From: a virus
IMG/VR virus record: IMGVR_UViG_3300010352_001169
DNA: 64,000 nt
Strand: one strand, 5' to 3'
A model generated the notes under the pieces. The model made no database searches. It worked only from the letters and a program-made list of their open reading frames with translations, and was not told where the DNA came from. Position 1 is the first letter of the stretch. The number at the start of each line of letters is the position of its first letter. The position numbers were made by a program, and so were the translations under genes. Below, piece after piece: positions 37,821 through 39,638 of the stretch.

Positions 37821-37893
37821 TCCGACAGACAGGACTTGAACCTGCAACCAGAAAATCTAGAGGTTTCTGCTCTACCAATTGAGCTACTGTCGG
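37821..37893 (-). tRNA. Amber suppressor tRNA, anticodon CUA
   Basis: CCGACAG-TA-GCTC-AATTGGTA-GAGC-A-GAAAC-CTCTAGA-TTTTC-TGGTT-GCAGG-TTCAAGT-CCTGT-CTGTCGG-A; U33, G37; one C31:U39 mismatch; CCA not encoded. Confidence 0.88.
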
Positions 37894-37897
37894 ATTT

Positions 37898-38032
37898 GCG
37901 GCCTTGGTCAACCACTCGCTGCCCATCGTCTAGATATTTGGTGCTGGACGGTGTCTCCGAACGAATCTTTCTGACCACGTATCTTTCACACCAAATATCA
38001 TCAACGCCTAAGCCTTGTCCGTTGTAGGCCGC
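37898..38032 (-). ncRNA. Unassigned 135-nt structured RNA immediately 5' of the suppressor tRNA
   Basis: GC-rich island; terminal 7-bp stem GCGGCCT/AGGCCGC; internal 11-bp stem 37933-37943/37989-37999. Confidence 0.6.
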
Positions 38033-38046
38033 TTTATTTTACTATA

Positions 38047-38054
38047 CAAAGATA
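38047..38054 (-). promoter_or_regulatory. Bacteroidota-type -7 promoter box TATCTTTG for ncRNA + tRNA
   Basis: Matches TAnnTTTG, 14 nt upstream of the RNA 5' stem. Confidence 0.6.
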
Positions 38055-38077
38055 AGTAAAATTATCTAATTAAAAAA

Positions 38078-38545
38078 TTATTTATAAAAATCGCCTTTTT
38101 CTTCTTTGTAGGCTTTCAAGAGTTTATCGGCCTCATTTCTTGCTTTGATCCACTCTTTTCTTCTTGCTTGAATTTTTTCTTCCTTTAAGGATTCTTTGAT
38201 ATAAGGACAACGAACGAATTTATCATTCTCCATTTCACAAAGACCAAAAGTTTTGGTCAATAAATTAAAGAAAGTGTTTACTTTTCTTCGTGTAGGATTC
38301 TTCTGAATCCAGAAACAATATTTCTGAATTTTTTTCATTTTTCTTTTAGAAATATCTCTCCAATTCTTTTCTAAATTTTTATAAACATTAAGAGTGACAT
38401 CGTCTGTCAAATGTTTACTGATTTTAATTCTGTAATCATTTTCTTCAATCCATTTCTTGATATTTTCAACGGTTTCGTTAATCTTAGCGATAACTTCACA
38501 TTTGTTATAGGCGTACGTAACACCAGCTTTTGTCATTGTTTCCAT
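38078..38545 (-). CDS. Basic hypothetical protein
   Basis: 155-aa ORF downstream of the amber mini-ORF. Confidence 0.75.
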   Translation of the reverse strand: METMTKAGVTYAYNKCEVIAKINETVENIKKWIEENDYRIKISKHLTDDVTLNVYKNLEKNWRDISKRKMKKIQKYCFWIQKNPTRRKVNTFFNLLTKTFGLCEMENDKFVRCPYIKESLKEEKIQARRKEWIKARNEADKLLKAYKEEKGDFYK

Positions 38546-38636
38546 AATTTAATTTTATTTTGTTATAAATTTCATTATCTTTTATTTACAAGTCGATAAT
38601 GATTAAACTTGTTTTGCTGATTGTACTTTACACCAT

Positions 38637-38660
38637 TTATGGCGGCTTTACCTATGACAT
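38637..38660 (-). promoter_or_regulatory. Leader mini-ORF ATG TCA TAG GTA AAG CCG CCA TAA (M-S-amber-V-K-P-P)
   Basis: AGGAGG at 38665-38670, 4 nt from ATG; immediately followed by ATG GTG TAA. Confidence 0.65.
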
Positions 38661-38673
38661 TGTTCCTCCTTTC

Positions 38674-38979
38674 TTAGAAAATTTTATTGTTAATAATTTT
38701 AATTAATTCTTCACTCATTGGTGAAGTTAATAAACTTGATATGGTTGTTTCACCATATTTCCTATTTGACACAAAATAGAATGATGAGTCTTCTATATTC
38801 TTCTCAATAGCAAAACCATATCTATAATCTTTAAATATCCATTCCATTAATAAAGAGTCTTCACTTTCTGGAAAAACGACTAATTCATTTTCGTCTGCCA
38901 TTGGAAAATTCTTTTTAAAGAAGTCTCTGAAAATCTTCACAGATTTTTCAAATTTATGGTCTAACTCATTTATTTTCAT
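38674..38979 (-). CDS. Hypothetical protein
   Basis: 101-aa ORF in operon. Confidence 0.7.
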   Translation of the reverse strand: MKINELDHKFEKSVKIFRDFFKKNFPMADENELVVFPESEDSLLMEWIFKDYRYGFAIEKNIEDSSFYFVSNRKYGETTISSLLTSPMSEELIKIINNKIF

Positions 38980-39200
38980 AATGTTTCATCCTTTTCATAA
39001 TTAACATAATTCATCTCATTCCAACAATCTACACAAGGAAGATCTTCTGGAACTGGATCTAGATTTCTATATTTACACGTATAACATTTAATTTCTTTAA
39101 TTTTCGTCGGCGTTTCTGATATTAATCTACTTGCTGTTTTTCTTAAAATTTCTAATTCTTTACCTTTCATTGGTTTGGTTCCTTCAAATATACTCTTCAT
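38976..39200 (-). CDS. Small protein with CxxC...CxxC
   Basis: CYTC and CVDC; ATGA-coupled to PTH2. Confidence 0.65.
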   Translation of the reverse strand: MKSIFEGTKPMKGKELEILRKTASRLISETPTKIKEIKCYTCKYRNLDPVPEDLPCVDCWNEMNYVNYEKDETL

Positions 39201-39580
39201 AATGTTTCCTTCTTTATATAATTATTTTTATCTATTTGATCTTCAGTTGCATAATCTCTTAACATTTTAGGCAAAGAGCTAGTAATCCTTCTTGAAGCTT
39301 CAGAAGGTTCAATACAGATAGCGGTAACTTGATTATCAATATCAGGTTCCCTAAAAACTGAAAAATTGATTTTGAATTTTTCTAATTTAGAAATGAGAAT
39401 ATTAAGCTCTTGCTCATTCTTGACAGTGAGCAAAGCTAAATAAGGGTCTTTTGACCACTTTTCATAAATCTACGGAAATTCTTGTGCGAATAATAAAGCC
39501 ACGTGAACAGATTGTGTAGCGGCATAACCGGGAGTGATATCTTGTCTTGTAACTACAATAAGTTTGTGAATCTACGACAT
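39197..39580 (-). CDS. Peptidyl-tRNA hydrolase 2 (PTH2 family) with in-frame TAG at codons 3 and 37
   Basis: MS*IHKLIVVTRQDITPGYAATQSVHVALLFAQEFP*IYEKW...LTVKNEQEL...FREPDIDNQVTAICIEP; AAGGAG SD upstream. Confidence 0.85.
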
Positions 39581-39600
39581 TTTAATTTCTCCTTTTTTAA

Positions 39601-39638
39601 TTATATATTAACTTTTTCGATTTTGTTTTACAAAATTA
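39601..39638 (-). promoter_or_regulatory. Tandem host-type (TAATTTTG) and putative late (TAATATATAA) promoter elements upstream of PTH2
   Basis: 39631-39638 and 39601-39610 on the minus strand. Confidence 0.45.

Follow-up and report, generated by a model that had tools for sequence, protein, structure and literature searches.

A huge phage with the standard genetic code and its probable self-contained cassette for nonsense suppression

What does a tRNA that reads a stop codon do in a phage whose genes are written in the standard code? The question is raised by a 64,000-nucleotide (nt) stretch of viral DNA, hereafter called the window, which spans positions 43390-107389 of the 116,659-bp IMG/VR contig IMGVR_UViG_3300010352_001169 and has a GC content of ~29%. 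Within less than 2 kb on its minus strand lie a tRNA with the anticodon CUA, a gene of the PTH2 (peptidyl-tRNA hydrolase 2) fold interrupted by TAG (amber) at codons 3 and 37, and a seven-codon leader with TAG at codon 3. Judged from sequence comparisons, these parts probably form a self-contained nonsense-suppression cassette, and the view that the TAG codons act as a local amber gate in front of few genes is well supported. The contig derives from a huge phage: CheckV rates it as about 25% complete, which implies a full genome of several hundred kb. Near-identical DNA occurs in metagenomes from activated sludge, wastewater, and rivers. The closest complete public genome is that of the uncultured phage LR756501.1 (735,411 bp), whose PTH2-like protein is 81% identical and whose gene keeps both TAGs.

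The PTH2-fold gene (39197..39580, minus strand) comprises 127 codons, ends in TGA, and is preceded by the Shine-Dalgarno (SD) sequence AAGGAG at ~39589-39594; its in-frame TAG codons occupy 39572-39574 (codon 3) and 39470-39472 (codon 37). The leader (38637..38660, minus strand) has the sequence ATG TCA TAG GTA AAG CCG CCA TAA, i.e. M-S-TAG-V-K-P-P-TAA, with its TAG at 38652-38654 and the SD sequence AAGGAGG upstream (GGAGG at ~38665-38669). The tRNA (37820/37821-37893, minus strand) is predicted by ARAGORN and scores 61.6 bits against the Rfam tRNA model. An earlier reading, made from the sequence alone (the sequence-only reading), had grouped these three features with a structured RNA stretch into one module and had remarked that both amber frames open ATG-TCN-TAG behind an SD sequence. 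All four features were recovered in place on the minus strand, and both frames open as described. The composition of the module changes in two respects: the PTH2 gene, the leader, and the tRNA stay in it, the structured stretch of ~135 nt does not, and a conserved gene that the leader precedes, orf155, had been overlooked.

The PTH2 fold of the gated protein is certain. With TAG translated as a residue, the Pfam family PF01981 matches residues 6-96, spanning codon 37, at 24.8 bits (cut-off 23). The AlphaFold model reaches a predicted local distance difference test score (pLDDT) of 88.8, and its 14 best Foldseek matches in the PDB all belong to the Pth2 family, with template modelling (TM) scores of 0.52-0.76 (2zv3, 1q7s, 3erj, and 1xty at 0.65-0.76). 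A profile of the phage family matches AF2095 at E = 2.7e-8; in this alignment E78 and T86 preserve the acidic residue and the Thr of the DAG...T region, and a loop of four residues is deleted in the phage family relative to Pth2. A PDB search with the single sequence gave noise only. By Pfam, fold, and profile match, the gene with TAG at codons 3 and 37 is of the PTH2 fold. Between the first TAG and the opening strand and helix of the fold, which are conserved, there is no alternative start codon. Gene callers that apply the standard code shorten the gene in this contig to a 78-residue product. The family phrog_14850 matches residues 34-117 of the window protein only and may be built from truncated calls such as gp293 of the Tenacibaculum phage pT24.

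Homologues were collected by an alignment-based search of IMG/VR, which yielded 80 loci, mostly on contigs of 100-450 kb; querying IMG/VR with the protein alone, or looking for the exact tRNA pattern, gave zero matches. Together with other fetched loci, the 80 loci fall into 66 clusters at 90% identity. The gene is gated in 52 of these clusters, 51 of which begin with M, zero to three residues, and TAG, and one with M-T-TAA; phage pT24, which a distance limit had missed, raises the number to 53. As many as 17 different prefixes precede the stop, and the gate codon is never CAA or CAG in any cluster. The codon behind the gate always begins with a purine (ATT in 31 of 52 clusters, GTA/GTT in 13, and AAC, AGC, GGC or AGA in several). 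Among relatives at 40-89% protein identity the TAGs are kept while neighbouring codons vary, and the identical sequence of the locus is held by other samples. Sequencing errors or chance as the origin of the TAGs are ruled out, since a cultured phage and dozens of independent assemblies all keep them.

A maximum-likelihood tree places the gate on all deep branches, as an ancestral trait, and has it lost once: 11 ungated, GC-rich sequences form a single nested clade (support 100/99). The position of the stop shifts between codons 2 and 5, where ungated homologues have Thr, Ala, Pro or Ser. The TAG at codon 37 is limited to the subclade of the window; elsewhere the position is mostly Glu, sometimes Gln, His, Ala or others. 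Sense codons in homologues had been named in advance as the observation that would count against a gate, and here the two sites part ways, with the stop at codon 3 kept in 52 of 66 clusters and replaced by sense in the GC-rich clade, and codon 37 sense outside the subclade. The cultured carrier is Tenacibaculum phage pT24 (NC_049383.1; locus L164, 3956-4909), in which the gene opens ATG AAA TAG at 194083 and an annotated tRNA-Sup lies at 191520-191593, 2.6 kb upstream of it. The GenBank entry lets gp293 start at Met43, 135 nt (45 codons) past the true ATG, so that the annotated protein lacks the opening strand and helix of the PTH2 fold.

Several loci outside this pattern deserve a description of their own. 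In the ungated clade, ten loci (L050, L053, L058, L060, L062, L064, L068, L069, L073, L081) harbor odd tRNAs 0-1.5 kb downstream of the PTH2-like gene, with anticodon loops of 8 or 6 nt that contain UUCA; ARAGORN calls them 'Glu|SeC' and gives (ttca) or (tc) as the anticodon. UGA or codons of four bases may be what they read; the gene itself showed no TGAA gate. A gate by a four-base codon was considered for this clade and ruled out because its genes have a plain SD-ATG start. In the AT-rich locus L038 (~5960-6010), an in-frame TAG is present and the only nearby ATG is out of frame (overlapping ATGA), which may reflect a frameshift, an assembly error or an unusual start. Mycobacterium phage Myrna (NC_011273.1; locus L166, 3989-4546) has a TAG directly before the GTG start of its PTH2-like gp84, with a well-spaced SD sequence, and 130 nt downstream of gp84 an annotated tRNA-Ser that ARAGORN reads as CUA with a weak D arm. 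The TAG-recoded megaphage Lak-C1 of Prevotella (MK250029.1; locus L170, 3234-3306) encodes a tRNA with the anticodon UUA 0.7 kb upstream of an ungated PTH2-like gene.

The suppressor tRNA is tied to the gate by position and by anticodon. That of the window is folded by ARAGORN into a cloverleaf with CUA in a normal 7-nt anticodon loop, U33, C1:G72, and A73, and without an encoded CCA, and shares 81% identity with the first CUA tRNA in the relative G001. Among the 53 gated clusters, 43 have in the fetched locus a tRNA on the same strand whose anticodon matches the gate, at a median distance of 846 nt, and seven of the other ten are loci cut by a contig end. The related phages hence display both traits that the sequence-only reading had singled out for comparison, conserved TAG positions (51 of 66 clusters) and linkage to CUA tRNAs. 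The sole locus with TAA at codon 3, L087, has a tRNA(UUA) 1.6 kb downstream, and its leader reads M-T-TAA-V-N-K-P-P-TAG; the stop of the leader, a second site, thus also follows the anticodon. We infer from these patterns that the charged phage tRNA(CUA) would decode UAG and permit read-through.

The leader is retained as M-x-amber-x(1-2)-(K/R)-P-P-stop in 15 loci (S-P in two). It always has a strong SD sequence and always precedes a homologue of orf155, which in turn always lies immediately upstream of the suppressor tRNA. Since K/R-P-P is kept and the Pro codons vary synonymously across the 15 loci, selection appears to act on the leader peptide beyond the amber codon. In 11 of the 15 loci, a box of 10 nt with the consensus GUUUCCAUAA is found 2-19 nt past the leader stop and pairs with the orf155 start region UUAUGGAAAC (positions -3 to +8 of the start). 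Ten of the 11 duplexes have predicted energies of -11 to -15 kcal/mol and z-scores of -4.4 to -6.0; C-to-U wobble changes occur in the pairing, and double compensatory changes in L012 and L025. A ribosome held at the Pro-Pro-stop of the leader would cover this box.

In the window itself, leader and orf155 are separated by a conserved spacer (38546..38636, minus strand) with a small hairpin around the leader stop and two mutually exclusive hairpins. The hairpin enclosing the leader stop codon is shared by the window, L018, L003, and LR756501.1. The alternative ones are formed by ACAAGU/ACUUGU (~38588-38612) and AUCAYUAUC/GAURRUGAU (~38572-38604); L018 lacks both, and according to alignment and folds the spacer hairpins of LR756501.1 contain one compensatory change from U-A to C-G. 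The gene behind the spacer, orf155 (38078..38545, minus strand), encodes a conserved helical protein of 155 residues with homologues at the same position in ~17 loci. Its model has a pLDDT of 80, structural comparison leads no further than generic helical bundles (Z <= 6.1), and neither Pfam, PHROG nor Atlas gave a match, nor was an informative fold match obtained. Two metatranscriptome libraries contain contigs that match orf155 exactly, over 38104-38289 and 38287-38437, which weakly suggests that this gene is transcribed.

The GC-rich structured stretch of ~135 nt (37894..38034, minus strand) directly upstream of the tRNA folds with -48 kcal/mol (z = -3.7 versus shuffles). It has no Rfam match, either at gathering thresholds or at E <= 10, and no copies turned up in a BLAST search of all fetched loci and the contig. 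Relative to G001 and L003 it is an insertion; the sequencing run X3 carries it exactly, and the strain of run X5 has another sequence in its place. The proposal that this RNA is part of the module had to be given up, as it is a strain-specific insertion that the closest relatives lack. A theta (hepatitis delta virus-like) ribozyme was considered as well; those found by phage suppressor tRNAs sit 3' of the tRNA (PMC10879173), whereas this stretch sits 5', and together with the lack of an Rfam family match this rules the identity out. On the 3' side of the window tRNA lies the end of a convergent gene.

Put together, the phage tRNA(CUA) would be needed to translate two neighbouring frames with UAG at codon 3. 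One is the PTH2-fold gene with its second UAG at codon 37, on which two small open reading frames (ORFs) coupled by ATGA overlaps would probably depend too; the other is the seven-codon leader M-S-UAG-V-K-P-P-stop before the unit of orf155 and tRNA. Without suppression, a dipeptide would be released at codon 3 and no product made. With suppression, the hydrolase-like enzyme would be synthesized, and ribosomes would arrive at the slow-terminating Pro-Pro-stop of the leader; in most relatives the stalled ribosome would then cover the 10-nt box and unmask the start codon of orf155. Our preferred interpretation is that an enzyme clearing blocked tRNA or peptidyl-tRNA would be made in proportion to suppressor activity. 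The PTH2-like enzyme might also act back on the suppressor. In a more elaborate form, which we regard as doubtful, the cassette would be a homeostatic governor: the enzyme would act specifically on the charged suppressor tRNA or its peptidyl form, and its own ambers and the leader would close a negative feedback with a low set-point of read-through. Such a governor, if true, would let the phage run a stop-reading tRNA safely while phage and host still use TAG (or TAA) stops.

Whether TAG is read locally or throughout the genome can be judged from the use of stops. Of the 80 ORFs in the window with 100 residues or more, none ends in TAG, and of the 142 in the whole contig one does, in agreement with the earlier statement that the window reads in the standard code (code 11) with TAG stops nearly absent. 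Compared with the complete genome LR756501.1 (735 kb; TAG ends 53 of 851 ORFs, 6.2%), the depletion in the contig is significant (binomial P = 0.001), and as the contig is more depleted than its relatives, its lineage may tolerate stronger suppression. In LR756501.1, ORFs cover 86.3% of the sequence under code 11, 87.7% under code 15 (TAG read as Gln), and 88.9% under code 4 as control; in the relative G005 (429 kb, 96% complete; TAG ends 24 of 484 ORFs) the values are 82.0%, 83.4%, and 83.1%. Code 15 adds 1.6 percentage points in the contig and 1.4 in both LR756501.1 and G005. TAG-recoded phages are recognised by a coding density that rises by about 5-10% with TAG as sense (PMC10879173), and the gain stays below this in the contig, LR756501.1, and G005. 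For the contig and LR756501.1 it is also no larger than what code 4 adds as the control. In LR756501.1, stops flanked on either side by coding-like sequence number 8 for TAG versus 79 for TAA and 39 for TGA; on inspection the 8 TAG cases were adjacent genes or antisense frames, and none was convincing.

Within the genomes, the gate is confined to one gene. A strict scan for an SD sequence, ATG, one to five codons, a stop, and following coding sequence returned the PTH2-like gene as the sole match in LR756501.1, and as the only TAG case in the contig of the window and in G001. A general habit of placing TAG near the N-terminus was rejected, as ATG-x-TAG before open frames is no commoner in the contig than ATG-x-TAA or ATG-x-TGA. 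Cross-genome tblastn of TAG-containing frames retrieved mostly shadow frames. The claim that recoding is local and not genome-wide is borne out by the standard code and the TAG stops of LR756501.1 and G005, by the conserved linkage, and by the switch to TAA and UUA in L087.

The rival explanations can be measured against this evidence. Use of code 15 throughout the genome, with the window as an early standard-code region and recoded late genes in the unsampled 75%, would fit the incompleteness of the contig, its single TAG-ended ORF, and the CAA or CAG found at codon 37 of some homologues, and recoding confined to late genes, which fragments can miss, has been described (Borges et al., 10.1101/2021.08.26.457843). 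It is nevertheless very unlikely, because LR756501.1, which has the same two TAGs, and G005 keep TAG stops in 5-6% of their ORFs without an excess of coding-flanked TAGs, and TAG ends 55 of 646 ORFs in the pooled gated loci. A neutral by-product, in which a suppressor tRNA lets TAGs drift in as an early step to recoding and without a regulatory role, would follow a path proposed by the same authors (10.1101/2021.08.26.457843) and would suit the lineage-specific TAG at codon 37, which stands at a variable position. Drift would scatter TAGs, however, and what is seen is one gene family and one leader that keep an N-terminal stop across the tree while neighbouring codons turn over around it, with no other gated gene in 735 kb; we consider this explanation unlikely.

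The TAG at codon 3 may also be a real stop that closes an M-S minigene, with translation of the PTH2-like protein re-initiated at the codon behind it (ATT or GTA) and no link to the tRNA. The frequency of ATT, GTA, and GTT behind the gate and the GTG start of Myrna lend this some appeal, yet it leaves unexplained the TAG at codon 37 inside the fold, the linkage to the tRNA, the TAA/UUA covariation at two sites, the conservation of the peptide past the leader amber, and the AAC, AGC, GGC or AGA found as next codon in several clusters, and must be called distinctly improbable. Insertion of a special non-standard residue at TAG by dedicated machinery, as for pyrrolysine, is suggested by the ARAGORN label 'Pyl' (given by anticodon only) and by the unusual acceptor features and unclear isotype of the tRNA. 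The site nonetheless lies before the first strand of the fold, shifts between codons, and is occupied by ordinary residues in ungated homologues; the same codon is used in an unrelated leader of seven codons, and no synthetase-like gene was recognised adjoining, so that this reading is highly improbable. A pseudogene or sequencing error, to which the truncated 78-residue call and the like annotation in pT24 might point, deserves next to no credence, given TAGs in dozens of independent assemblies and a cultured phage and a downstream frame that is intact and folds confidently.

The local amber gate, well supported as it is, has to accommodate a number of observations that weigh against it. The relatives end 5-8% of their genes in TAG, and L087 still ends 13 of 18 ORFs in TAA; since TAG in relatives and TAA in L087 remain in use as stops, suppression can only be weak or under tight control, and where it is weak, little product is to be expected. 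No CUA tRNA is seen in three gated loci whose 6-kb flanks are complete, the comparison of the window tRNA with other phage tRNAs gave no clear match for its isotype, and the GC-rich clade has the PTH2-like gene without any gate. On the side of the leader, no pairing of a box with the orf155 start could be detected for the window, L018, L003, and LR756501.1, all of which keep the leader; the contigs from RNA libraries cover orf155 only and could stem from contaminating DNA. Finally, the catalytic residues of Pth2 are taken here to be the Lys of its GK motif and the Asp of its DAG motif; where that Lys would stand, the phage family has Tyr19, and on this assignment of residue roles hydrolase activity is not assured.

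Parts of the arrangement recall known regulatory systems. In the autoregulation of prfB, the gene of release factor 2 (RF2), an early in-frame UGA is passed by a +1 frameshift and thereby senses the release factor. The cassette shares with it a gene for a putative translation factor with an early in-frame stop, the synthesis of which would report the decoding of that stop, but needs a suppressor tRNA rather than a frameshift. Arrest and leader peptides such as SecM-secA, MifM-yidC2, ErmCL, and TnaC unmask a downstream start in response to a small molecule, secretion or an antibiotic. The leader described here is likewise a short, SD-led ORF that ends in a slow-terminating Pro-Pro-stop and is followed in 11 of 15 relatives by the box that pairs with the next start; it differs in that its proposed input is nonsense suppression at codon 3, pairing is undetectable in the lineage of the window, and arrest is putative. 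The bar minigenes of phage lambda, ORFs of two codons and a stop, are a classic source of peptidyl-tRNA drop-off that is cleared by Pth. Here, by contrast, the hydrolase gene itself and the leader each open with such a minigene, and the stop is proposed to be read through.

With archaeal and eukaryotic Pth2 (PF01981) the gated protein shares the fold and detectable sequence homology, whereas the phage gene is tightly linked to stop-reading tRNAs. The presence of PTH2 in jumbo phages has already been noted, the early stop codon being unmentioned (PMC7824862). The code 15 phages with suppressor tRNAs (crAss-like and Lak; 10.1101/2021.08.26.457843, PMC9523058, PMC10879173) resemble the phage of the window in encoding a tRNA(CUA), in presumably making expression dependent on it through in-frame TAGs, and, as far as this contig is concerned, in avoiding TAG as a stop. 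They differ in that here the code is standard, one protein family and one leader are involved, the stop sits at codon 2-5 and is not spread over late genes, and the cassette is deeply conserved in standard-code phages. In the preprint of Borges et al. (10.1101/2021.08.26.457843), the word 'hydrolase' is absent (0 occurrences). Xanthomonas phage XacN1 is likewise a jumbo phage with CUA tRNAs and no genome-wide recoding; its authors read through 18 amber stops and identified no target gene (PMC5852040). In the present phages a conserved target adjoins the tRNA, while the PTH2-like domain of XacN1 is ungated. A literature search combining PTH2, amber, and suppressor tRNA found no account of the cassette arrangement.

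Between the PTH2-like gene and the leader lie two small genes on the minus strand. The first (38976..39200) encodes 74 residues with CxxC...CxxC motifs, has homologues in close relatives only, and matches no Pfam or PHROG family; its start overlaps the stop of the PTH2-like gene (ATGA), which makes translational coupling to the gated gene probable. The second (38674..38979; 101 residues) starts in an ATGA overlap with the stop of the first, and has homologues in G001 and G002 and no family match. No terminator-like sites were found between the PTH2-like gene and the tRNA. Beyond the PTH2-like gene, 39636-40247 (minus strand) encodes a protein of 203 residues with two halves that resemble each other and weak matches of SH3-like type; LR756501.1 and other parts of the contig contain paralogues of it. 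At the far end of the window (1-320; contig 43319-43707), a phage transfer-messenger RNA (tmRNA) has an unusually long predicted tag of 33 residues; a similar one is present in G001, and G005 has a short tag. LR756501.1 encodes three odd tRNAs far from the cassette (204243-204333 and 228902-229090; L137 and L138), given by ARAGORN as (ttac) and (ta).

For the biology of these phages, the cassette supplies a conserved natural target for the orphan suppressor tRNAs of standard-code jumbo phages, for which the study of XacN1 (PMC5852040) found none. It also shows a gene family that gene callers routinely truncate, as in pT24 gp293, in the 78-residue call of this contig, and probably in phrog_14850. 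A tRNA and a stop at codon 3 would make up a compact two-part translational switch, and the leader peptide would seem to be the first of its kind to sense the suppression of a stop codon. A suppressor tRNA can, on this evidence, persist for long without genome-wide recoding, which bears on the origin of the code 15 phages.

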